From NCBI GenBank assembly GCA_000002435.2, contig CM018791.1: DNA of 64,000 bases; one strand, given 5' to 3'. Under the pieces are notes generated by a model. It saw only the letters and a list, made by a program, of their open reading frames with translations, ran no database searches and was not told where the DNA came from. Below are positions 37,301 through 48,183 of the stretch, piece after piece. How positions within the stretch are numbered: position 1 is the stretch's first letter; each line of letters opens with the position of its first letter. The position numbers and the translations under genes are program-made. Origin of the DNA: Giardia intestinalis. Its lineage: Eukaryota.

Positions 37301-38095
37301 GAAGAGCTGGTCCGTGCCAATCAGAGATAGAACTGTCACATCATTAACAAACCCCATGGCCTTAAAGACTGTAACAATGGGGATGGGCTTCTTGTTGAAC
37401 TTGTTATGAATCAAGTAAAACTTCTTGTTCTTGTAGAGCACTGCACAGCGAGACTTGCGCTCGGTGGTGTTCGACGCCACAGTGACCTCTACGTTTCCAT
37501 CTGCGTTTCGTCCTAGAACAATCCTATTCATCGTCATTTGCTCTGCCAGAAGAATGGACTTCTCTGCACCGCGCACAATGAAGTAACCCCCGGGGTCATC
37601 GGGACACTCCTGGAGAAATGCCTGCTGCTTGCGTGACTTGTTAGTCAAAATACACCGATTGCTTCTTAGCATGATTGGTATGTAGCCGATGCAAATCTCC
37701 TTGTAGTACTGCACAGAGCTCTTGTTAGAAGCTTTACATCTGACATCAATTGTTATAGGGGCAGCGTATGTCATATTGCGTTGACGACACTCGTGTGGGG
37801 TCAACCCAACGCCACTGCCCGCGGAAGAACTTGACAGCTTGGAAGAGCCCTGAGAAACCTGCTTCACATCCACCTTCTCTATCCGCAAATGAAACTGCGG
37901 ATGCTTGGCTACTACAAGAAGAGAATTTTCCTTGATTATGGCTGGTATGGTGACGTCCAGCAGATGATTAAAGCTATCCAAGTGATGCTTGGTGATGCTT
38001 TCTGTCATCAGATAGGAGTGTATTAACCGCCACCGGTCCATAGCGACTGAGTGAACGGGAGAATCCGGCGAGGGGATTCCCAGGGGCATTTTCAT
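34379..38095 (-). CDS. DNA-directed RNA polymerase second-largest subunit, most likely Pol III RPC2/C128 (1238 aa)
   Basis: Signature GDKFSSRHGQKGVCG...MNPHGYPSRMTVAK, then GPIYYQKLKHMV, QPTEGR, GEMERDC, a C-terminal Zn ribbon CETCG...CPTCQ and IPYAAKLMIQEL. The GVCG, MNPHG-PSRMTV-K and IYYQKLKHMV variants match RPC2 rather than RPB2 (GTIG) or RPA2 (GVCS). This assignment is from memory of yeast Ret1/Rpb2/Rpa135. The track ORF starts at GTG. The first ATG (38095) follows CTTAAATTAAATGAATGG. Confidence 0.85.
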   Translation of the reverse strand: MKMPLGIPSPDSPVHSVAMDRWRLIHSYLMTESITKHHLDSFNHLLDVTIPAIIKENSLLVVAKHPQFHLRIEKVDVKQVSQGSSKLSSSSAGSGVGLTPHECRQRNMTYAAPITIDVRCKASNKSSVQYYKEICIGYIPIMLRSNRCILTNKSRKQQAFLQECPDDPGGYFIVRGAEKSILLAEQMTMNRIVLGRNADGNVEVTVASNTTERKSRCAVLYKNKKFYLIHNKFNKKPIPIVTVFKAMGFVNDVTVLSLIGTDQLFLDYMSLSVQECSNDKIYTQEQALKYLADRIVVRTYTNANANFSASPVATAAKASVESARDCLAHFVLSHIPVVERLNLQQAAQHVLPQASAPAGSSVSAGADVGTATIGGGRSGSANATAKSVSGGGASTGASTIGSAASLTNTARFNWLPKAVYLATMIRRAILFDFGVIKGDSKDFVGNKKIETAGDLLELIFDDAFKTLLAHMVRKVDSVLRSDRNRGTDLTNYDIVSLVDPSIITRAFNSAISTGNWKIEKIGVDRVGVSQILSRLSYISALGQVTRLSSTFDKAMKSSGPRMLNFSQMGIFCPSDTPEGESVGIVKNLSIMARISKDESTDSISKLLMSIGVEDLASCWSGDTFSLGYGYMVFLNGTIKGVIAKDMLKGFIITLRTFRRRGYISYLTSFHFNDEHQAVYINCDSGRACRPLLIVENGKLMLTRSDIELLVDNQKCFVDLIYEGKVEYLDVNEAKNAYIAMDTKDLTPQHTHCEIESYTLLGYVVGLIPYPHHNQSPRNCYQCSMGKQASGAIAFNQLERFETAMFLLDYPQQPLTSTKILKLTGYERLPAGQNATVCVMSYSSFDIEDALILNRNAIDRGFGRCSIYRSVSTELNSIGSKSVDGIKDILLGPPKDHLKQYEGYHAIEDDGLCAVGAHLKTGDIVINKGRHITNIPGLSDGTEATASLIKAPESLKSPLETITYVDKVLVTTNGDGNMLIKVLTREPRRPEVGDKFSSRHGQKGVCGLIVPQSDLPFTSQGIVPDLIMNPHGYPSRMTVAKLLELLSNKSGCFRGEQTDGTCFRTKTDETFLAELYDSLRVAGFSYSGKDVLYSGLTGDVIPVYIFNGPIYYQKLKHMVKDKIHSRGTGPITMLTRQPTEGRRVHGGLRMGEMERDCAISYGASALLLERFMLSSDDFLAYVCETCGLFSYEKNGVLWCPTCQSGKDVVKIRIPYAAKLMIQELISMGVLVRMQLEDSV

Positions 38096-38157
38096 TGCTC
38101 CTGTCCATTCATTTAATTTAAGTGGCACAGAAAAGCTTGAAAACTAACGCGTTCACT
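38096..38157. promoter_or_regulatory. 62-bp divergent promoter region between RPC2-like (-) and hypothetical gene (+)
   Basis: Two divergent real ATGs are separated by 62 nt containing A/T-rich initiator tracts on both strands. Confidence 0.45.
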
Positions 38158-40362
38158 ATGTCAGATGCAGATGACGCTACCATCGAGCAGGCTCTCTGCA
38201 CTGAACCACTTGATTTACAGGTGGCCATGCCGCATATTAAACGAATTGTAAGTAAGGATTTCAACGCTCGCGAAAACATTATTGAGCTCCTTCAGCGTAG
38301 AGGGGCTGAGATCCTGCGGAATATCCTCAAAGCAGACGGCCTGCTCAACTCCACTGCTGACTGCTGGAAGCATGTCGTCCTGTTGGCCATACTAATTATT
38401 AAGTACTCGACATCCTCGTCTCTTGTCTACCTCATACAGCTCCTCCCTGACCGAGCGGCGAAGCTGGGTTCTGGGACCGACGGAGAGCATTATGCAGTAA
38501 GGCATATGTCACAGATTTTGGAGTTCTATATCCGCAAGCTTGTCTCTGACTCTATCTCCAGGTTTCCAGTGCCTCCTGAGGGCACAGAAGGAGATTCGTT
38601 GGTTACCTGGAAGACAGAGCTGGCGTACGTTCGGCCAGTGATTGCTCTTCTCCTCGCTGTGATAACCAGCAAGCAGGGCGAGCATGCTAATGTGACGGAA
38701 ATAGAGCCACTTCAAGAACGGGATATGTGCACAGGGTACATCTCTATGTTATCCCTCCTTCTCATATTCGAGGCTGGCAAGCGCACGTTCGTCGAGGCAG
38801 ACGGGTTCACTGTCCTAATGATGGTTGCTGCACAAACTCAGTCCATCCCGGTAGTGACTGCCATTCTGACAGCCTTCCACAGCTGTATTTTCAACCTTGT
38901 CGACAGCGTCAACGAAGAACTGGATGTCCCGGCCGCTGACTCCGCTTCTGGAGATTGCAATCCTAAGCAGACCACAGTGTACAACCTAGTGGTGGATGCA
39001 TTTGCCTTTGTGCGTCCTCACGAGCTTATTGAGTCTGTATATGAGCGCTTCTACCGTCTGCACTACGTACCAAAGCAGCCCATCTTTACCGAGGACCAGC
39101 TGAAGCAGCAGCTCACCGAGCTCACCTTTTCGGTAGTCTTACTGTTTCATGACTGTGCCCTCCCAGAAACAACTGGCTTCGTGACAGGGGAGAATCTGCT
39201 CTTCATTGCGCAATACATAGTTTCGGTTACCAAGGGTGTTAGCTTGTCAAAGCCAGCGCTGTGGCAGTCCGATGGGTCGCTCGCCACGTTTAATGCCAAG
39301 GTCAAGGGAGGATTAGAGGCACTTATGCGGCTGATCAGTTTGCACACAGAAACCCCCACGGCCATTAGGATTCTGATAAACGGATACAACCATGAGACTA
39401 AGGAGCATGATTCAGTGCAGTCCCAAGGCCCTGTTGCGGAGGACAAGTCAGTGGATGTTGAGGGTGGGGAAGAACCTCTCAGGAAGGCTGAGATGCCCGG
39501 AAATATTGACTTTCTCCGAGCTGTGGTTAACGCTGTCGCTGTCACTGACTGCTCAACGCTTGCTGGGACGCTGTTCTCCTTCCTCTCTCTCGTTGCATCG
39601 TACTCTTGCTGCTATAGTCGAAGATTGATAATACCACTGGAGTTTACATCCTATGAGAGGATTCTAAGATGGGTGAGTGCGTATGGCTCCTACATTCTCG
39701 GCGGGCACGCTGAGACGACAAAAATAATCCAGAACATGGAGGATACGTGCCTGGTCCTTGTGTGGCTGGTCGAGAACTCCTCTTCTGACAACGAGGAGGG
39801 TGCAGATATCGAAGAAGTGGCATCTAAGACGCTAACTCGCAATGAAATATGGGCCCGCCTTTCCATCAAGCAGGAGGCCCATGGAGTGCTGATGCTGGCC
39901 ATGGCAATGTCTGTCATCAAAGGTCTTGTGCCCACACTGACTGGTCTATTATCTGTTATCTCGTGCTTCATGGGCACCGATGGCTATTTCGTTAGACTCC
40001 TTACCGTCTTTAAAGAGAAGAAAGTAGAGATATGCAATTTCCTTGTTGATCTCTGTGCCAACCTAAGCAAGCAAGGCGCGTTCTGCTACGTTGTCTGCAA
40101 TAACATACTCAAAGGAATGTCGTCACTTCCAGATGCATTCTCATCGGTTGACGTCAACCAGTTGGCGGACGCGCTTCTCCCCCTGGGCTTCAGCGACGGC
40201 GATGACGACGTTCTGATGAAGATTGTTAACAGTTACGAGGAGATTCCTCCCGTTATAAAGGAATCTTGTAAGAAGATCTTGGCAATCATGGATGCTGTGG
40301 ACGGTGAAGAGATGGTGGCAAGGTCAGAGCCCTATGCCAGCCAGCCTGCAGCCGTTGGATAG
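38158..40362 (+). CDS. Hypothetical helical-repeat protein (734 aa)
   Basis: The track ORF starts at GTG. The first ATG (38158) follows AGAAAAGCTTGAAAACTAACG. The product is alpha-helical, possibly ARM/HEAT-like. AGTAAAT lies at 40366-40372, 4 nt after the TAG. Confidence 0.7.
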   Translation: MSDADDATIEQALCTEPLDLQVAMPHIKRIVSKDFNARENIIELLQRRGAEILRNILKADGLLNSTADCWKHVVLLAILIIKYSTSSSLVYLIQLLPDRAAKLGSGTDGEHYAVRHMSQILEFYIRKLVSDSISRFPVPPEGTEGDSLVTWKTELAYVRPVIALLLAVITSKQGEHANVTEIEPLQERDMCTGYISMLSLLLIFEAGKRTFVEADGFTVLMMVAAQTQSIPVVTAILTAFHSCIFNLVDSVNEELDVPAADSASGDCNPKQTTVYNLVVDAFAFVRPHELIESVYERFYRLHYVPKQPIFTEDQLKQQLTELTFSVVLLFHDCALPETTGFVTGENLLFIAQYIVSVTKGVSLSKPALWQSDGSLATFNAKVKGGLEALMRLISLHTETPTAIRILINGYNHETKEHDSVQSQGPVAEDKSVDVEGGEEPLRKAEMPGNIDFLRAVVNAVAVTDCSTLAGTLFSFLSLVASYSCCYSRRLIIPLEFTSYERILRWVSAYGSYILGGHAETTKIIQNMEDTCLVLVWLVENSSSDNEEGADIEEVASKTLTRNEIWARLSIKQEAHGVLMLAMAMSVIKGLVPTLTGLLSVISCFMGTDGYFVRLLTVFKEKKVEICNFLVDLCANLSKQGAFCYVVCNNILKGMSSLPDAFSSVDVNQLADALLPLGFSDGDDDVLMKIVNSYEEIPPVIKESCKKILAIMDAVDGEEMVARSEPYASQPAAVG

Positions 40363-40415
40363 ACTAGTAAATAACCCTGAAAAGCTAGATTTTTTAATCT
40401 CCCGCCTCAGCCACA

Positions 40416-41951
40416 ATGAGCCGCGCCACAGGGGTTCTGTTGGGCCCACATGAGGCTGAGATCAATGGAGAAAGAGTCATAAGCGCTGCGTGCTCCGATG
40501 GAGCGCAATTCAGAAGGCTGAGCATGGCATGGAGCTCGGCAGCAAGATTCCTTTCAGACACTCCTTCTGTACTTCCTCTTGAGAGTATCAATGGCAATCC
40601 GCAAAATCAGTCGATATACATCCGATTTAGGAAGATGAGCGGAGTATCTATGCAAACACTACTTCAACGGCATCAAAGTGCCAACCTCCCCTTCTCAGAG
40701 GAAGTGCTCCGCTCATATGCACTCCAGCTATTGACAGGAATATCTGCTCTCGAACGACTCAATTTCTGCCCGACCGTCTCACTTGATACCATACTCGTCT
40801 CTTCTAGCTTCTCTACCGATCCGTGCAACGCTTCCATGGATGATGCGCTAGACTACGCCGGTCTGCTCATTCACGGAGAGTGCTTCTTAACGTGTTATGA
40901 TCCAATTATTTCGACGGGGAAGAGTACTAGGGACTACGATCTCCACCCCCCTCCTCTGGTGTCTTTTTCTCGTGTTTTTGATGAGCTTTGCAAACTTCAA
41001 AAGCAGGACACATGTGCTGGCAGTGTGCCATATCGTGTGAGCTCCAAACCTGGCTCAGGGTATTCAAGGGAACTGCGGGTGCTCATGCGAGCTTGTTCTC
41101 AGGAGCATTCTGCATTGCGCCCATCTGCATACCATGCTTTGCAGTGGTTTAAACGGATTCATGCTGGGGTTGACCTCAGTTGTGTCAATGGTATTCCGAC
41201 CGTGTTCAGTATTACTCCAAGGGTGTCTCGCTCGCCCAGCCCGGTACGTAGTCCGAGTCCTAGCAGACTCGTCTCCCACCCAGACTATCCCGCACTATTG
41301 GGTAGCCAGCGCTGTCTAAGAGCCTATCTTGATAGTGAGCCTGACAGAAGTCTCGTTGAGGACCTCCTCGAGACGGCTGTTGCAAGAAGAAGTGTGATGG
41401 GGATAACAACTATTTCTGATCATTCAAGAAGGAAACAGGTCTTTGCCACTATCAAGCCTCGGGTGGGTGTTGCCGTTATGCGGGAGACTGCTCTTATGGC
41501 AGCGACCCGTGCTAATAATAGTGAAGCCGTACAACATATCTTAAAGACGTCTCCAGAGCTTCTGTGTTCAATACATTGTGGAGATACTAGTCTGCGGATA
41601 GCATCCAGACGAGGTCTGTTTTCTATAGTCCGCCTGCTGTTAAGTGAGCTTGGCATTCGGAGCCCTGCCGGCTGGACCGCGCTGATGTCTGCTGCACGAC
41701 ATGGTTATGATGACATAGTGAGGCTGTTACTCCCGGAGGCCGGAGCACAGTTACAGGATGGCACATCTGCGTTGATGCTTGCGTGCAGGTATGGCCACGC
41801 AAATTGTATAAGAGAACTGCGTGCCGTGGAGAAGAACCTGACAACAACCAATGGAAGCTCTGCCGTTGACTTCATTGCGGAGTCGTTTCACAACGGTACC
41901 CTGAGTAACGCAACAAGACAGAAGTGTCTAGATGCGCTAGCTGGTGAGTAA
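40416..41951 (+). CDS. Ankyrin-repeat protein with a highly degenerate kinase-like N-terminal region (511 aa)
   Basis: Real ATG after TAGATTTTTTAATCT. The N-terminal ~300 aa keep only vestiges of a kinase fold (LQLLTGISALERLNFCPTVSLDTILVS in place of the catalytic loop; no Gly-loop or VAIK). The C-terminus has about 4 ankyrin repeats (GWTALMSAARHGYDDIVRLLL, GTSALMLACRYGHANCIREL). The stop TAA is embedded in AGTAAAT (41947-41953). Confidence 0.8.
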   Translation: MSRATGVLLGPHEAEINGERVISAACSDGAQFRRLSMAWSSAARFLSDTPSVLPLESINGNPQNQSIYIRFRKMSGVSMQTLLQRHQSANLPFSEEVLRSYALQLLTGISALERLNFCPTVSLDTILVSSSFSTDPCNASMDDALDYAGLLIHGECFLTCYDPIISTGKSTRDYDLHPPPLVSFSRVFDELCKLQKQDTCAGSVPYRVSSKPGSGYSRELRVLMRACSQEHSALRPSAYHALQWFKRIHAGVDLSCVNGIPTVFSITPRVSRSPSPVRSPSPSRLVSHPDYPALLGSQRCLRAYLDSEPDRSLVEDLLETAVARRSVMGITTISDHSRRKQVFATIKPRVGVAVMRETALMAATRANNSEAVQHILKTSPELLCSIHCGDTSLRIASRRGLFSIVRLLLSELGIRSPAGWTALMSAARHGYDDIVRLLLPEAGAQLQDGTSALMLACRYGHANCIRELRAVEKNLTTTNGSSAVDFIAESFHNGTLSNATRQKCLDALAGE

Positions 41952-41953
41952 AT
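41947..41953 (+). promoter_or_regulatory. Polyadenylation signal AGTAAAT overlapping the TAA stop of the 40416 gene
   Basis: ggtgAGTAAATag. The stop codon lies inside the AGTRAAY match. Confidence 0.5.
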
Positions 41954-41960
41954 AGTATCG

Positions 41961-43580
41961 TCACGTAGAGACCATAGTAGTGAGCGTAACTGGATTGGTG
42001 GATAGTCCGTGCTTTGTTGTCTTTCTTTTCTTAACAAGTATGATTGCTAGTGTAATGACGGTAGCAGCAAGAAGTAGCACAGCAAGTGGCAACGTGATCG
42101 ATAGAATAAGCGTTGTCCTGTTAGTACTAAGCGGAGGAAAAGCAAAGGGAGAATCAGGATCATTATCCAAACATACCACAGAGGTCTCAGAAGATGATAC
42201 CAGACACTGCTTGCATCCCTTTATACCCTTCAGAGGTCCCGAGATAGTAGAATTATCGCAGCGAATGCAACCATGGACAGAGCTGGTCCAAAAGTATCCT
42301 GGTGCACAAAGATTGCACCCACTAGGCGACGAATCCTCGCAAGAGAGACAACCAGGTGCACACTGACTGCAGTGCACCTCCTCAGAGTCGACTGAAACTT
42401 GCGTGGAGTAGTATCCGTTAGAGCAGAAAGTACATATGTCCGGACTTGATGGACAAGCAAAGCAGCCAGTCATGGTACACTTAATGCACCCGCCGTCACT
42501 AGTCCGATGGTAGCCACACGTACAAGCTCGACAAGTCCCATAGGCGGCAGGATCTATTCGCTCTGCGGCGGCGCATACTAGTTTTCCCGGGGCATATAAT
42601 GAACTATAACACCCTCCTTGATGCAGAAAGTACCCCAGGGCACATTTAAGGCAGAGACCTTTGTCTGTTTGAGCACATGCAGAGATCTGCTGACCTGAAG
42701 TAGAAACGCACCTCCCATCGAGAGGAAAGAAGCCCTGGCTGCACCTAGAGCAATACCTTGCCGATCCCAGGATAGCATGACATTCCACGCACGGTCCTAC
42801 GGCGGCTTCGGCGCACTCTGGAACACAACGACCCATAGTGAGCACGTTAGAATCAGTCCTATATATGAAATATCCGTCAACACAGGAGGTACACTGATCT
42901 TCGATTGCTCGTTCACAAGAGTAACAATTTGCTGGACAGAGATCGCATGTATTTGTGATAGGATTTGCTGCATAGCCGATGGGGCAGCTGTGCAAACATA
43001 TTCTGCGTGCCGGCTGTAGAAAGTATCTTTTCTCACACAAAACGCAAGTGGCTCCAGAATCAGTTCCGTTGTTCTCGCAAACACAATTTGCTGGACAACC
43101 GCCCACTTCTAGACAGTTCCTCCCATCTAGGGAAAGACCAAATGGTATTTCGCACGCGTTGCAAATGTCAGCGTTATCGGTGCAAAGAGCGCAGCTGCTG
43201 ACCTTGCAAAGGATACACCCTTGTGCTCTGTTGCCTTGGTCTAGTCCATATCCAGCGATGCACGTACACTGTCTAGTATAGTAATTGGACGATGCACCGA
43301 TTCCACAGGAGGCCACGCACGATCTTCCATTAATGCTAACCATATAATCATACTCAGAACAATCTAGACATACAGGGGCTGTATCAGTGGAAGAGGGTAA
43401 CATGCAGCGAGAGCATCCTCTTATACCAGCGTATCCATGAACTGGCACTTCAGTACTACAAGAGATACAATATCCCCTGTCATTACCTTGAACTGCCAAG
43501 AAAGACGTACTATTGCACGACGTACATGAGGCATCGTCTTGACCATCACACGTAGTACAGGATTGGTGGCACGACGACAT
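41961..43580 (-). CDS. High-cysteine membrane protein (HCMP-like; ~11% Cys, CXXC/CXC motifs, single C-terminal TM, short basic cytoplasmic tail)
   Basis: 539 aa from the first ATG, with dozens of CXXC/CXC spacings. A hydrophobic TM segment (LILSITLPLAVLLLAATVITLAIILV) is followed by a KKRKTTKHG... tail rather than the VSP CRGKA tail. No N-terminal signal peptide is visible. The track ORF starts at a TTG. Confidence 0.85.
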   Translation of the reverse strand: MSSCHQSCTTCDGQDDASCTSCNSTSFLAVQGNDRGYCISCSTEVPVHGYAGIRGCSRCMLPSSTDTAPVCLDCSEYDYMVSINGRSCVASCGIGASSNYYTRQCTCIAGYGLDQGNRAQGCILCKVSSCALCTDNADICNACEIPFGLSLDGRNCLEVGGCPANCVCENNGTDSGATCVLCEKRYFLQPARRICLHSCPIGYAANPITNTCDLCPANCYSCERAIEDQCTSCVDGYFIYRTDSNVLTMGRCVPECAEAAVGPCVECHAILGSARYCSRCSQGFFPLDGRCVSTSGQQISACAQTDKGLCLKCALGYFLHQGGCYSSLYAPGKLVCAAAERIDPAAYGTCRACTCGYHRTSDGGCIKCTMTGCFACPSSPDICTFCSNGYYSTQVSVDSEEVHCSQCAPGCLSCEDSSPSGCNLCAPGYFWTSSVHGCIRCDNSTISGPLKGIKGCKQCLVSSSETSVVCLDNDPDSPFAFPPLSTNRTTLILSITLPLAVLLLAATVITLAIILVKKRKTTKHGLSTNPVTLTTMVST

Positions 43581-43914
43581 GTTAAAGTAGGCTCTCGAGA
43601 CCAAATTACTAGGTAGCCGTATCCTAAGAAATTAAAAGCTGATTGTTACGTAGAATTGTGTACATTAACATCAAGTAGCTGCATTGTATTACTGTAGCAT
43701 TGGTGAGAACATCTCTTGGATTTTTAGCGCTGCAGAGAAGGCCCGGGATCTGGTTGGTAAGATAACCTTTGTCCAGTGCAGTAGAAATGTCTTATTCATC
43801 AAAACACTGTGGTCGCGAGGAAGGTCTTGGTCAGTACAGATGCTCACTTTGTGCAACATAATCAAGAACCCGATTCAGTTTACAGTTGGACGAGAGCAAA
43901 TAAAAACTCCTAAT

Positions 43915-44472
43915 TTACTTGCAGCACCCGCCGCCCAGGCAGCAGAGCGCCGCGGCGTACATGGCTGTGAAGACTACCACATCGACGAGCCCGAGGACCA
44001 CGCCCGCCCACTTGTTGGAGGGGCCCTCAAGAAGGCCGCGGGGGCCCGCCGGGACGATGGCCGCGATGACGACGAAGGCGACGATGCAGCCCAGAATGAG
44101 CCCGAGGAACTTCAGCCCGCAGCTGTCCTTGTGGATGAAGAACGAGCCGATGACCACGGTGAAGGCCCAGCCGGCCGCGAGGGAGACCATCGACAGCCCG
44201 CTGTAGCCGCCCACGGTGTTGCTGAACGACTTATCGTTACCATTGTTCCCGTTCTTCGCCAGCACGGAGGTGATCAGGTACGTGAGGAAGTCCGCGAGCG
44301 AGGGGTACCCGACCCCGACCCCGATGCGGAACGCGTACTTGAGGAAGCAGTCGAGGCACCCGCAGCACCCGCAGCAGCAGCAGCTGCAGCAGCAGAGGAC
44401 GCACTTGAGGATCTGGACGACGATGCTGTAGATGATGCAGATCACGGCCACAATCATTATGAAGAGGAAGAG
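43915..44472. repeat. Left arm of a 558-bp inverted repeat (pairs with 46093..46650)
   Basis: The reverse complement matches the right arm with a single difference (GGG vs GGA Gly codon). The match ends exactly at the TAA stop. Confidence 0.9.
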
Positions 44473-44676
44473 CTTGCCCTCATTTTTATCAGTAAGACAC
44501 TGTATGGGATTTTTCCCATTACTGTTTCCCTTACTACCATTACTATCGAAACACGTTTTCAGCGTTTCTCCAATTGTTTTAGGATTTCTCCCCGGAAACC
44601 CTACAATCAGAGCATAAACAATCATCGGAACGCCCACACAGATGAGGGCAATGACGTCCTCATCGCAGCAGCACAT
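43915..44676 (-). CDS. Cysteine-string multi-pass membrane protein, paralogue A (253 aa)
   Basis: Real ATG after GGAATTTAAA. MCCCDED N-terminus, poly-Cys string CCCSCCCCGCCGC after TM2, C-terminal CCLGGGCCK, and 4-5 predicted TM helices. The 3' 558 nt are nearly identical to 46093..46650 on the opposite strand. Confidence 0.75.
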   Translation of the reverse strand: MCCCDEDVIALICVGVPMIVYALIVGFPGRNPKTIGETLKTCFDSNGSKGNSNGKNPIQCLTDKNEGKLFLFIMIVAVICIIYSIVVQILKCVLCCCSCCCCGCCGCLDCFLKYAFRIGVGVGYPSLADFLTYLITSVLAKNGNNGNDKSFSNTVGGYSGLSMVSLAAGWAFTVVIGSFFIHKDSCGLKFLGLILGCIVAFVVIAAIVPAGPRGLLEGPSNKWAGVVLGLVDVVVFTAMYAAALCCLGGGCCK

Positions 44677-45126
44677 TTTAAATTCCTTCGAACAAACCGA
44701 GTAAATAGATTTTGACGTATTGACGGTGTAAGGAACTTATGCAGATGCTTGTCTAATGGCACGTGTCCACAACTAGATTCAATATAGTCAGCTATATTTT
44801 CAAGTTTAGCGGCAACCCTTAAAAAACTATGCATGTAAACAAATTACACCAACAATCATAAATACTCGGATGGCTTCAGTGGTCCCGGGGGGCAAGAGGT
44901 AAGGCATTGATACAGACTGTTTCGTTGCTAGTGTACGATGCGACGAGCGTGATATAACAAACGTACACCTGGATCTAAGAGGCCTGAATCTCTCCGTCTA
45001 ATCGCACTCTTTGAACATAGATTTTCCTCCAGACACTTAAGTTTTCGCTTTGAAACGGACAGGTCTGCATTCAGCTGCTGATGTCGAAGTGTGGTGTGTT
45101 GCAGGGCACTCTCCTGCCGTCAAGCC

Positions 45127-45543
45127 TCACCCTCCACTTTTCCAGTTAGCTGTCCATCCCAAGTCTGATTTCGGAAAGTATACCTTGTTGCAGTACCTCA
45201 GAGCTGTTTGCAGTAAACCTTTTGCTGAATTGGGGTCACGGCTTTCGAACTGTGGAACCAGTCTTTCATCTGCGAGGGTCTGCTGAGGGCTGCGCCCCGG
45301 CTGTTCTGCGCACGCTCCCCTGCGGAGGCGGTGGCCGGGGGCGCACCGGTGGCAGTACTCCGGGACGGCGCAGACCGCGCAGTGCTCGACGGCGCAGGGC
45401 CCGGGGGTGCACGCCCGCCCGCCGTCTGCAGGGACCAGCTCGCCCTGGCAGCGCAGGCAGGCGGCGCCCGCGCACCGCTCGCAGCCGGGGACCGTCACCC
45501 CGCAGGGCAGGGCCGCGAGGAGGCGGAGGAGGCGTCCGGGCAT
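45127..45543 (-). CDS. Small secreted Cys-rich (CXXC) protein or VSP/HCMP-like N-terminal fragment (138 aa from MPGRLL)
   Basis: Signal-peptide-like MPGRLLRLLAALPCGVTVPG followed by four CXXC motifs (CERC, CLRC, CAVC, CHRC) within 60 aa. The 5' two-thirds are extremely GC-rich. It may be a pseudogene remnant. Confidence 0.3.
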   Translation of the reverse strand: MPGRLLRLLAALPCGVTVPGCERCAGAACLRCQGELVPADGGRACTPGPCAVEHCAVCAVPEYCHRCAPGHRLRRGACAEQPGRSPQQTLADERLVPQFESRDPNSAKGLLQTALRYCNKVYFPKSDLGWTANWKSGG

Positions 45544-45830
45544 CGGCGTGTTTTCGGCCAAAAATCTGGCGATGTCTACGGCGCCCGCGACCTGGGACAC
45601 GCACTGGGCGCGCCACTGGCGCCTGGCCTGGGACTACGTCCTCGGGGCCGCCGTGGCAGGGCTCCTCCTGGTGTGCGGGGTGCGCTCCCCGGGCCAGGCA
45701 GGGGACCCGGACCCCCGGCGCAGCCCCCGCAGCCCCCGGCGCCGCAGCTCCTTCGAGGGCCGGGCTCCCCCGCGCCGGCGGGAGACGAGCGACCCCGACG
45801 TCGACTGCTCCGACTAGCCCGGGGCACGCG
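45290..45830. other. GC-rich island (visually >70% GC) in the spacer between the inverted paralogues
   Basis: Dense GC-rich codons give spurious open frames on both strands and in several frames (ORFs 45222..45845, 45266..45868, 45331..45840, 45407..45817, 45576..45827). Flanking DNA is about 45-50% GC. Confidence 0.7.
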
Positions 45831-45900
45831 AATCCCATAAAGTGAACGTCAACGCTTTTCCGGCACAATCACCGGGTAGTTTATTGATGGAGAAAAATAA

Positions 45901-46650
45901 ATGTGCTGCTGCGACGAGGACATCATCGCCCTCATCTGCGTGGGCATCCCGATGATCGCGTACGCGGTGGTAGTCGGCTTTCCGGGGAGAGACCCCAGCA
46001 AGGTTGGAGCGGCATTGAAAGAGTGTCTCAGTAACAAAAATGGTAAGAATCTTCTGGCCTGCATCAGTGAGAAGGGGGATAACTACGGCGGCCTCTTCCT
46101 CTTCATAATGATTGTGGCCGTGATCTGCATCATCTACAGCATCGTCGTCCAGATCCTCAAGTGCGTCCTCTGCTGCTGCAGCTGCTGCTGCTGCGGGTGC
46201 TGCGGGTGCCTCGACTGCTTCCTCAAGTACGCGTTCCGCATCGGGGTCGGAGTCGGGTACCCCTCGCTCGCGGACTTCCTCACGTACCTGATCACCTCCG
46301 TGCTGGCGAAGAACGGGAACAATGGTAACGATAAGTCGTTCAGCAACACCGTGGGCGGCTACAGCGGGCTGTCGATGGTCTCCCTCGCGGCCGGCTGGGC
46401 CTTCACCGTGGTCATCGGCTCGTTCTTCATCCACAAGGACAGCTGCGGGCTGAAGTTCCTCGGGCTCATTCTGGGCTGCATCGTCGCCTTCGTCGTCATC
46501 GCGGCCATCGTCCCGGCGGGCCCCCGCGGCCTTCTTGAGGGCCCCTCCAACAAGTGGGCGGGCGTGGTCCTCGGGCTCGTCGATGTGGTAGTCTTCACAG
46601 CCATGTACGCCGCGGCGCTCTGCTGCCTGGGCGGCGGGTGCTGCAAGTAA
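45901..46650 (+). CDS. Cysteine-string multi-pass membrane protein, paralogue B (249 aa)
   Basis: Real ATG after GAGAAAAATAA. The domain layout matches paralogue A. The N-terminal ~65 aa diverged (MCCCDEDIIALICVGIPMIAYAVVVGFPGRDPSKVGAALKECL...), and the remainder is identical. Confidence 0.75.
   Translation: MCCCDEDIIALICVGIPMIAYAVVVGFPGRDPSKVGAALKECLSNKNGKNLLACISEKGDNYGGLFLFIMIVAVICIIYSIVVQILKCVLCCCSCCCCGCCGCLDCFLKYAFRIGVGVGYPSLADFLTYLITSVLAKNGNNGNDKSFSNTVGGYSGLSMVSLAAGWAFTVVIGSFFIHKDSCGLKFLGLILGCIVAFVVIAAIVPAGPRGLLEGPSNKWAGVVLGLVDVVVFTAMYAAALCCLGGGCCK
46093..46650. repeat. Right arm of the 558-bp inverted repeat
   Basis: See left arm. The arms are separated by about 1.6 kb (44473-46092), which holds both divergent 5' gene ends and the GC island. 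Confidence 0.9.
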
Positions 46651-46662
46651 ACGGCGCCCGGC

Positions 46663-48183
46663 CTACTGCTCGGTCTCCTCGTAGATCGTGATCTCGGAGC
46701 AGTCTGCGCACCGGAGCCCGCTGTCCTCCGAGACGGGGACCTGGAAGATCACCCTGCAGAAGCGCATGAACCGGTTTGCGTACGCGTCGCTCGGGACCGC
46801 GGAGATCCCGTCCTTGTCTGCGCACAGCCCCTTCGCCCTGCGCTCGACGTGCTTGATGCTCCTGAACTCGGTGAGGAAGTCGACGACGCCCATGTGGAGG
46901 ACCCGGTAGTAGAGGGCCGACCCCCGCAGCGTGGGCCCCAGGGCGCAGGCGGGGGAGAACGCGTAGAGCCCGCCCTCCTCGCTGTGGAAGATGTCGCTGC
47001 TCTGGATGGCCGCCTCGAACGTGAAGCGGCGCCGGAAGACCTCCCGGAGGTACTCGTCGGGGGGCAGCGCGGCGAGGAACGCGGACGTCCCCCGGCTCCC
47101 CCCGGCCGCGATGCTGTGGCCCACCGGGGGCAGCATGTCCGAGACGTCCCGCGTGCTGAGGATGGTTCTCGGGGAGCTGGCAGCAAGAAGGCGGTCGTAG
47201 AAGCGCTGCACAGGGGTCTTGGCATCTTCGCTGTGGACTTTATCGGCTTCGATAGTGTTGTTGGTTGGCGTGCCCGGGGCCGCTGCGGGATCATCGTCAC
47301 GCTCTCTGTCCTGAATACACGGGATATCGTCCGTGAGACCCAAGAGTAGGCTGTAGTCTATCAGGTTGTGCTGCTTGAGCCAATCTGAGTCTGCCTTGAG
47401 CTGATGGATCAGGAGCCGCCGCCGGAGGGTTGTGAGGTAAATGTAGTTCTCCATATTTGTGTCCTTCAAGGTCTTTTTGGCCCGATCATCAGGAGCATGC
47501 AGCTTTGTGTGCCGGCCAACCCAGGAGCCCTTCAGGTCATACCGCTCAACTATCTTTCGAGGAGTGGCGAAAAGGTTTGGTATGATAATAAAATGCTTAC
47601 CATGCTTGGAGGTCCTATGTGGCGCTGAAGAAGTGCCGGGCTTACCGGTAGTGATAGTGAACATTGCGTAGATCCGGATGAGAAGTGAGCTAGGGTTATC
47701 TAGAAGGTGCCGCCCGTATGATGCGCAGATCTTTAGCATGAGAACAAGCTCCTTGGGCTTTAGTTGCTTAATAAGATACTTACCAGACTCGCTGAAAATA
47801 AAGAATGTGGGGCTTTTACCGGGCGACTTCATTAGCCCAGGGTGGCTGCATGTGACAAACTCTTTTAGCAGCGACTGAGGATTGAGGGAATCTTTTGTCA
47901 TTAGCGTTCTAAACATAGACGCATGATAGAAGATGGCAGTCAAATCGCTTCCAAGTGGCGCACTGGTGTTGGGATCCACCTCACTGCCGGGTAAAGCCAA
48001 TACTGTCATAAGGCCTTCTGTCTCGGAGCTGTATGGGTTCTCACCAGTCTGAGTTTGAGTTTCAATAACTTTTCCAATAGCCTGTTGCACGCGCCGTACA
48101 TGTGGATAGAGCGAACTCTGAACAGTCAGTTGCTCGCCAGAATATGGCCGTTGGTCATACTCCAACTTCCCCAACAGAACCAT
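46663..48183 (-). CDS. Phosphatidylinositol phosphate kinase (PIPK/PIP5K-domain) protein (506 aa)
   Basis: Real ATG after GATGATTAAAAA. PIPK core motifs are present: GKSPTFFIFSESGKYLIKQLKPKE (G-loop/substrate region), IDYSLLLGL (catalytic-loop region) and LHMGVVDFLTEFRSIKHVERRAKGL (activation-loop/C-terminal signature). The 3' ~640 nt are markedly GC-rich. Confidence 0.85.
   Translation of the reverse strand: MVLLGKLEYDQRPYSGEQLTVQSSLYPHVRRVQQAIGKVIETQTQTGENPYSSETEGLMTVLALPGSEVDPNTSAPLGSDLTAIFYHASMFRTLMTKDSLNPQSLLKEFVTCSHPGLMKSPGKSPTFFIFSESGKYLIKQLKPKELVLMLKICASYGRHLLDNPSSLLIRIYAMFTITTGKPGTSSAPHRTSKHGKHFIIIPNLFATPRKIVERYDLKGSWVGRHTKLHAPDDRAKKTLKDTNMENYIYLTTLRRRLLIHQLKADSDWLKQHNLIDYSLLLGLTDDIPCIQDRERDDDPAAAPGTPTNNTIEADKVHSEDAKTPVQRFYDRLLAASSPRTILSTRDVSDMLPPVGHSIAAGGSRGTSAFLAALPPDEYLREVFRRRFTFEAAIQSSDIFHSEEGGLYAFSPACALGPTLRGSALYYRVLHMGVVDFLTEFRSIKHVERRAKGLCADKDGISAVPSDAYANRFMRFCRVIFQVPVSEDSGLRCADCSEITIYEETEQ

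Follow-up and report, generated by a model that had tools for sequence, protein, structure and literature searches.

The cysteine-rich proteins of Giardia that lie closest to the gene described here are the secretory cysteine-rich proteins (SCRPs), defined as cysteine-rich proteins with a signal peptide and no transmembrane domain (Rodriguez-Walker et al. 2022, bioRxiv 10.1101/2022.03.07.483299). SCRPs bring together the former HCPs and the tenascin-like proteins (TLPs); they are reported without duplicates, and CXC motifs dominate in 12 of the 16 found in isolate WB (bioRxiv 10.1101/2022.03.07.483299). A protein is assigned to this kind if two or more of the programs Phobius, SignalP and TOPCONS predict a signal peptide in it and if it is similar, at E < 1e-4, to an annotated VSP, HCMP, HCP or TLP (bioRxiv 10.1101/2022.03.07.483299). 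VSPs themselves are marked by the initiator PyAATGTT, present in 135 of the 136 VSPs of WB (bioRxiv 10.1101/2022.03.07.483299). Here we analyze a stretch of 64,000 nucleotides of Giardia intestinalis DNA (contig CM018791.1 of assembly GCA_000002435.2; the window, in what follows), in which a GC-rich island contains a cysteine-rich open reading frame (ORF). The window sequence is WB-like and represents assemblage A1; it is compared with isolates DHA2 (assemblage A2) and GS (assemblage B). The comparison makes it very probable that the island consists of two small conserved genes, which we call A and B, transcribed divergently across a 28-bp spacer. A is apparently unannotated, and B is apparently known only as an old "hypothetical" entry at another copy of the same unit.

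GC content is 0.69-0.84 per 100-nt window from about 45250 to about 45850, against a mean of 0.496 for the whole window. A preliminary description of this DNA had called the island high in GC and poor in stop codons, and this was borne out: the 581 nt from 45250 to 45830 are 76.9% GC, with 0-2 stops in each of the six frames. The same description had reported a minus-strand ORF with a signal-like start and four CXXC motifs, which matched our own reading exactly. The frame spans 45127..45600 (157 aa from a GTG codon, 138 aa from the ATG at 45543), begins MPGRLL, and reads MPGRLLRLLAALPCGVTVPGCERC..CLRC..CAVC..CHRC. It holds four CxxC motifs and 11 cysteines inside a stop-free window of 60 residues, while the other five frames have 0-1 CxxC. 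When all six frames of 2000 dinucleotide-preserving shuffles were read, none attained four CxxC (maximum 3) or 11 cysteines (maximum 10), and the cysteine pattern is therefore not a by-product of composition.

Homologues of A occur at two loci of DHA2 (L001, locus 1; L008, locus 2), in GS (L003), on an ENA metagenome contig close to GS (L006), and on a Logan contig of a third lineage (L005, from SRR22936437). The loci in DHA2, GS and L006 are syntenic and were reached via homologues of the flanking paralogue; tblastn and ORF extraction then recovered A in each of them. An exhaustive phmmer search with the ORF gave a single close relative, P0022 (E 9.8e-17, 56% identity), which is encoded on L005; the matches P0024-P0027 are generic furin-like-repeat proteins of other organisms and are informative on the type of repeat only. 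We aligned five sequences (WB, DHA2 locus 1, GS, L006 and L005) and observed 30 invariant columns, even though the DHA2 locus-1 copy carries a deletion. All 12 cysteines were retained in every A sequence except that copy, in the pattern PCG-x3-PGCExC-x(4-12)-C-x2-CQGE-x(8)-AC-x3-PC-x4-C-x2-C-x5-C-x2-C-x2-G-x5-G-x-C. The copy at DHA2 locus 2 is identical to the window over residues 1-82 and keeps all 12.

The substitution pattern is that of a coding sequence. The ratio of nonsynonymous to synonymous substitution rates (dN/dS, Nei-Gojobori) is 0.18-0.25 for A. Between assemblages, the proportion of synonymous differences (pS) is saturated at 0.65-0.80, while that of nonsynonymous differences (pN) is 0.28-0.37 (about 0.28-0.30 for A1 against B); within the assemblage B pair, where saturation is no issue, pS is 0.169 and pN 0.045. 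All indels are multiples of three, and the total length is 78-112 residues across the sequences, or 138 with the read-on tail of the window. The A frame is the sole frame that is free of stops in all five sequences, and the orthologues at 50-53% GC carry 2-7 stops in each frame other than this one. On this comparative evidence, A is a real gene under purifying selection and, to judge from the alignment, is conserved across assemblage A2, assemblage B and the third lineage.

The same data bear on whether the ORF is a gene at all. Nearly all frames of the island are open, and the DHA2 and GS records have no gene annotated there, as would be the case if the ORF were a chance product of GC richness. 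With no shuffle reaching its cysteine or CxxC density, a dN/dS near 0.2, and orthologues at 50-53% GC in which A is the only frame left open, that explanation retains next to no likelihood. The constraint and frame data rule out the GC artefact that the preliminary description had listed as an option, which is already refuted as far as sequence comparison can do so. Conservation might instead reflect a non-coding function, with the region serving B and the paralogue as an extended promoter or enhancer, or giving rise to a structured or antisense RNA; A lies directly upstream of both genes, and Giardia makes abundant antisense transcripts. This reading appears highly improbable, as the substitutions are codon-periodic with pS saturated against a low pN, the indels are in frame, the cysteine codons are invariant, no Rfam family matched in 43500-47500, and Giardia promoters typically lie within about 50 nt (bioRxiv 10.1101/2022.03.07.483299). 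We also considered A as an antisense shadow of B and rejected it, since the coding sequences (45127-45543 and 45572-45817) do not overlap; only the in-frame stretch upstream of the ATG of A mirrors the N-terminus of B.

The predicted product of A is a pre-protein of about 80-100 residues with a hydrophobic, signal-like N-terminus followed by about 65 residues carrying the 12 cysteines. All lineages have this hydrophobic stretch at the N-terminus (Kyte-Doolittle maximum 1.65-2.07 over 15 residues and 1.15-2.11 over 19). The protein would enter the secretory pathway, fold with six disulphides and then, as a soluble mini-protein, either be released or remain at the surface. Tryptic peptides expected from the core include CAGAACLR and CQGELVPADGGR.

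What fold the cysteines define was examined by profile and by structure. A profile of the A family searched against PDB sequences matched only R-spondin-1/2 Fu1-Fu2 (E 7e-4 to 4e-2), with the register C-x4-C-x2-C-x5-C-x2-C-x2-G-x-x-L-x2-G-x-C aligned to the R-spondin sequence PCVIEHCAVCAVAEYCYKCFPGYRAYRGRC. An AlphaFold (AF2) model made from a two-sequence alignment had a pLDDT of 68 and formed a string of beta-hairpins; its top 29 Foldseek matches in the PDB were all R-spondin Fu1-Fu2, although the matches were weak (best E 8e-3, TM-score about 0.29). R-spondin Fu1-Fu2 is thus the best solved-structure match by both routes, and A resembles a pair of furin-like repeats preceded by a signal-like N-terminus. 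A and the R-spondin module appear to share two consecutive repeats, matching cysteine spacing, the ending ...C-x2-G-x-x-L-x2-G-x-C, and a similar size (about 65-90 residues). In contrast to R-spondins, A has no thrombospondin or basic domain and scores below the Pfam gathering threshold: PF15913 (Furin-like_2, gathering 28 bits) was sub-threshold in four of the five members, with 11-13.5 bits for WB and a best E of 0.0028. The likeness is one of fold module and not of function, and ligands of the LGR/ZNRF3 type are not to be assumed in a diplomonad. The preliminary description had taken the CXXC periodicity as diagnostic of VSPs and HCMPs; this was too strong, since the spacing is that of generic furin-like repeats.

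A nonetheless appears to share with VSPs, HCMPs and CRMPs the CXXC-containing furin-like hairpin repeats behind a signal peptide, and would be built from the same disulphide-knotted hairpin module as the VSP and HCMP ectodomains. With 12-14% cysteine in its short forms, 9.4% in the form of 138 aa, and four CXXC motifs, it is like VSPs, which have multiple CXXC motifs and about 10-13% cysteine. It differs in having about two repeats instead of tens and in lacking the family marks. At E <= 1, none of the five members, nor the 138-aa ORF itself, matched Pfam VSP (PF03302, gathering 31.4 bits), while the neighboring 547-aa HCMP-type gene scored 121 bits in the same search. Neither a second hydrophobic segment nor a CRGKA or other cytoplasmic tail was present in any of six A sequences, the hydropathy profile has no C-terminal hydrophobic segment corresponding to the transmembrane domain of HCMPs and CRMPs, no GGCY motif was found on direct reading of the sequences, and the initiator PyAATGTT is absent at the start of A (context GCCGATGCC; minus strand ...ACACGCCGATGCCCGG).

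We considered the suggestion of the preliminary description that a VSP/HCMP pseudogene, truncated and caught between inverted paralogues, accounts for the ORF. It is rich in CXXC, an HCMP-type gene (41961-43604, Pfam VSP E 7e-35) lies 1.5 kb away, and the two proteins show a weak similarity (tblastn within the window E 2.8e-4, BLASTP E 7e-4, hhalign probability 27%). This similarity is confined to the level of a single repeat, with the HCMP-type neighbor being the sole Giardia cysteine-rich protein compared one-to-one, and the exhaustive phmmer search returned no Giardia VSP or HCMP. GS and L006 have an orthologue of the same size, full-length with its own start and stop, and no inverted repeat flanks A in either. 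These orthologues, together with the constraint and frame data, rule out the captured fragment; with the missing VSP marks and the purifying selection, we regard this origin as very unlikely. For the further proposal that VSP fragments here serve as a substrate for surface-protein diversity, nothing in support was found in these searches.

The remaining option of the preliminary description, a small secreted cysteine-rich protein, is the one that the conserved 86-codon core and its dN/dS of about 0.2 support, secretion being a prediction. Operationally, A would fit the SCRP kind as by far its smallest member, with a signal peptide predicted from hydropathy only. Like SCRPs, it has a signal-like N-terminus, no transmembrane domain and no CRGKA, and more than 4% cysteine with several CXXC motifs (the SCRP thresholds are at least 4% and at least two CXC, CXXC or CXXXC motifs). 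Unlike them, it has only 78-112 residues without the tail, is dominated by CXXC where 12 of 16 WB SCRPs are dominated by CXC, and is duplicated and conserved as an orthologue across assemblages where SCRPs are reported to lack duplicates. Its best similarity (about 3e-4 to 7e-4, to the one HCMP compared) does not clearly reach E < 1e-4. The SCRP survey took annotated coding sequences and pseudogenes as its starting point, and A is not among these, since the records contain no protein identical or similar to it.

Several observations weigh against this view of A. In a word-indexed protein search with the 138-aa ORF, A was missing from every annotated proteome in the searched collection. The hydrophobic stretch of the WB protein is short and interrupted by arginine (LLRLLAAL), with the lowest 15-residue maximum of the range given above (1.65). 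No two of the three assemblage-A copies share a C-terminal tail, and the DHA2 locus-1 copy lacks eight residues and two cysteines. This instability within assemblage A could mean that constraint is relaxed there, and the low divergence between the WB and DHA2 cores could come partly from conversion-driven homogenization rather than from selection.

The differences among the copies can be placed precisely. A ends 4-6 residues past its last cysteine in GS, L006 and L005, and 4-8 residues past it when DHA2 locus 1 is included. Codon 87 (45285-45283) is CAG in the window and TAG in DHA2 locus 1 (45285 G>A), and the window's ORF has its 52-codon tail because of this difference. The position of codon 87 is the left edge of the duplicated unit. 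The copy at DHA2 locus 2 is identical to WB up to residue 82 and then continues into an unrelated tail of 30 aa. WB and DHA2 diverge by 1.2% in the core of A, by 1.2% in B and by 0/28 in the intergenic region, against 5.8% in the neighboring spacer of non-GC sequence, which points to constraint; in the tail of A the divergence is 3.8%, with an indel of 1 nt in addition. What the preliminary description had seen as decay into sequence of ordinary composition is there, and corresponds to non-conserved read-on past the ancestral stop at the boundary of the duplicated unit. A phmmer match to tail residues 90-124 (P0023, E 1.7e-12, 8 stretches) was rejected as spurious; P0023 is an animal-type SEA-repeat mucin, whose score against the non-conserved tail builds up over its repeats.

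The deletion in DHA2 locus 1 (45364-45387, 24 nt, in frame) removes EHCAVCAV and hence the two cysteines; the copy at DHA2 locus 2 retains these 24 nt. GC-rich direct repeats at 45364-45397 and at 45712-45742 (a CCCCCGGCGCAG-like array of period 9) coincide with in-frame length variants, namely this 24-nt deletion in A and a 9-nt deletion in B in the WB protein GL50803_34968. Such repeat-associated variants are consistent with replication slippage.

Could A then be functional in assemblage B and decaying, or already a pseudogene, in assemblage A, its frame kept by GC richness and conversion? The variable ends and the deleted copy fit such a course, five of the six frames are free of stops over the core in assemblage A anyway, and the core differs between WB and DHA2 by only 3 substitutions, too few to measure selection. 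We nevertheless consider it unlikely. Residues 1-82 with their 12 cysteines are identical between WB and DHA2 locus 2, pN between A1 and B stays at about 0.28-0.30 despite a saturated pS, the tail has changed beyond the conserved core, where the duplication ends, and the 28-bp putative promoter region is intact and identical in all the assemblage-A copies.

The right half of the island contains a second conserved gene, B, which the preliminary description had missed. The protein starts with a conserved, Trp-rich N-terminus (TWDTHWARxWRLAWDY) and has one hydrophobic segment (residues 23-37; hydropathy maximum 2.6 over 15 residues). Its tail is basic and rich in Ser, Pro and Arg, with a conserved RRxSF (residues 56-61) and an invariant C-terminus, RRRETSDPDVD[C/Y]SD (residues 68-81). 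Homologues are 81 to 136 aa in total, the length varying between RRxSF and the C-terminus. With a dN/dS of 0.13-0.22, and its frame alone open in all the sequences compared, B is, on the comparative evidence, a real gene for a predicted single-pass membrane protein. By the positive-inside rule, the short Trp-rich segment would precede a basic tail that faces the cytosol. The RRxSF motif is kept in all B homologues and fits the consensus of PKA-type basophilic kinases. The protein may be phosphorylated at this site, upstream of its invariant acidic C-terminus.

B has one counterpart on record in WB, XP_001709971.1 ("hypothetical protein GL50803_34968"), which is 93% identical over the full length. 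It has 78 instead of 81 residues owing to a 3-residue deletion in an RSP repeat, and is from the other copy of the unit. We assign it there because its accession is consecutive with XP_001709972, a 248-aa copy of the paralogue family. No literature on GL50803_34968 was found. For B, a Pfam scan gave no family, and its profile searched against the PDB gave only noise and no relatives. JGI metagenome scans with the A and the B alignments returned no relatives, and exact-sequence look-ups gave no record for ORF A or for the paralogue.

A and B are separated by an AT-containing spacer that is identical in WB and in both DHA2 copies. Its T- and A-tracts sit 7-11 nt upstream of the respective ATGs in the window and 7-13 nt across lineages, and the same TTTT / CAAAAT arrangement occurs in the 52-nt spacers of GS and L006 and the 43-nt spacer of L005. 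Short AT-rich promoters, typically within about 50 nt, have been described for Giardia (bioRxiv 10.1101/2022.03.07.483299, section 1.6). We infer that the spacer is a putative bidirectional AT-rich initiator region. Downstream of B, a match to the Giardia polyadenylation-signal consensus AGURAA (AGTRAA; bioRxiv 10.1101/2022.03.07.483299) is present in the window and in DHA2; no such motif was found within 80 nt at the GS, L006 and L005 loci, and the match is weak evidence. A scan for bacterial promoters and terminators gave nothing meaningful and is irrelevant to a eukaryote. The coordinates of these features and of their neighbors are collected in Table 1.

Table 1. Features of the island and its surroundings, in window coordinates.
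Feature	Position	Strand	Remarks
GC-rich island	45250..45830	none	left end of a multi-copy unit extending through the right-hand paralogue into the 3' end of PIP5K
Gene A, core (codons 1-86)	45286..45543	-	signal-peptide-like N-terminus, then about two furin-like repeats; 12 invariant Cys
ORF A, tail (codons 87-138 and stop)	45127..45285	-	window-specific read-on of ordinary composition, non-conserved
10-bp direct repeat GACGGCGCAG	45364-45373 and 45388-45397		bounds the 24-nt in-frame deletion of DHA2 locus 1
Divergent intergenic region CGGCGTGTTTTCGGCCAAAAATCTGGCG	45544..45571		28 bp; T-tract 45551-45554, A-tract 45560-45564
Gene B	45572..45817	+	81 aa; conserved second gene, right half of the island
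Polyadenylation-signal match AGTGAAC	45841..45847	+	23 nt past the stop of B
Right-hand paralogue	45901..46650	+	249 aa; predicted multi-pass membrane protein with poly-Cys clusters; third gene of the unit
Left-hand paralogue	43915..44676	-	253 aa; inverted copy, 3' 559 nt identical to the right-hand copy
PIP5K, last 167 codons	46663..47163	-	GC3 0.95-1.00; part of the duplicated segment

The third gene of the unit is the poly-Cys paralogue. The order, with A pointing away from B and from the paralogue (A<- ->B ->paralogue), is the same in WB, in both DHA2 copies, in GS and in L006. From these loci, the three genes appear to have been conserved together as a triplet in the different assemblages, with duplication of the triplet within assemblage A. 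The flanking paralogues that the preliminary description had noted are real: the inverted arms (43914-44472 and 46093-46651) are 559 nt long and 100% complementary. The right-hand protein is 100% identical to G. intestinalis WB XP_001710016.1 / KAE8303017.1, and the family has at least three members per assemblage-A genome, including a 264-aa form. No Pfam family matched the paralogues. Their sequences begin with MCCCDED, contain a CCCSCCCCGCCGC cluster and finish with CCLGGGCCK, and the proteins may be regarded as candidates for heavy palmitoylation.

The extreme composition of the island is not a property of its genes. At third codon positions, the A core and B have a GC content (GC3) of 0.91-0.95 in assemblage A, 0.74-0.75 in L005, and 0.45-0.55 in assemblage B (GS and L006). 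Overall GC of the assemblage B orthologues is about 52%, and A and B are therefore not intrinsically GC-rich. High GC instead ends where duplicated DNA ends. In the PIP5K gene (46663-48183), GC3 changes abruptly from 0.55-0.75 to 1.00, precisely at 47164/47163, and some 100 codons in a row have G or C as their last base. This step at 47163 is the end of homology to an inverted second copy in DHA2 (an arm of 839 nt, 99%) and in the Logan contig L002. In the paralogues, the identical arms have a GC3 of 0.85-1.00 and the diverged N-terminal parts one of 0.30-0.75. The unit duplicated in DHA2 has its left end at the left edge of the island (about 45285-45299), and GC rises there both in the window and at DHA2 locus 2. 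Extreme GC thus coincides with the boundaries of multi-copy, duplicated DNA, and a GC3 step in the middle of PIP5K is not explicable by expression-linked codon selection.

The most likely cause of the extreme GC is GC-biased gene conversion between copies. Composition and boundaries are what point to it. High GC would have arisen in those lineages in which the unit is multi-copy and recombining. A literature search for GC-biased conversion in Giardia gave only a speculative remark on rDNA.

The copies themselves carry traces of exchange. A second complete copy of the A-B-paralogue unit is present in DHA2 at L008 5334-5913. Its B variant, LLLACGARSPG, is shared with L007, a Logan contig (SRR14213831) that is 99.6% identical to window positions 45326-48175. 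This mosaic of variants suggests exchange between copies of the unit.

Orientation also differs between the genomes. Comparing window 44473-46092 with L001 8371-10440, we observed that the segment between the arms, comprising A, B and the N-terminal parts of both paralogues, is inverted in DHA2 relative to full-length PIP5K. Window 37916-44678, which includes the HCMP-type gene, is collinear with L008 5999-12747 in the opposite orientation. That region lies on DHA2 contig AHGT01000002.1, about 75 kb from L001 on the same contig, and synteny between the window and the DHA2 PIP5K locus is lost to the left of 43914. These differences represent either A1/A2 inversions via the repeats (a flip of the spacer, and one of about 75 kb with breakpoints in the paralogue copies) or mis-orientation in the 454 assembly of DHA2. 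At DHA2 L001 7566-8039, the duplicated 3' fragment of PIP5K is annotated as a separate 157-aa gene with a PIP5K Pfam match; this is most likely a truncated duplicate and not an independent gene.

The island is, on our reading, a head-to-head gene pair at the edge of a duplicated, GC-driven, recombining unit. We hypothesize, tentatively, that the whole cassette (A, B, the paralogue and the 3' end of PIP5K) may be a recombination hot spot, in which GC-biased conversion would have driven GC3 to about 1.0 with base-pair-sharp edges and the copies would mediate the A1/A2 inversions of the spacer and of about 75 kb. If true, the cassette would carry a clear signature, at the level of sequence and outside rDNA, of GC-biased conversion in Giardia, and it would give a practical means of reading out homologous recombination in a parasite whose sexuality is a matter of debate. 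It would also have preserved an unannotated pair of a secreted mini-protein and a membrane microprotein, perhaps acting with the poly-Cys membrane protein.

A and B add two conserved small genes to the Giardia gene list, and they illustrate that a GC island with frames open everywhere can be resolved by comparison with orthologues of lower GC. Secreted cysteine-rich proteins are candidate virulence and host-interaction factors in Giardia, and the two-repeat product predicted for A, with about 65 residues, may offer a tractable minimal model of the VSP/HCMP building block. A GC3 of about 1.0 at duplication boundaries gives a concrete, testable case for GC-biased conversion and repeat-mediated inversion, one that bears on the extent of homologous recombination in Giardia.

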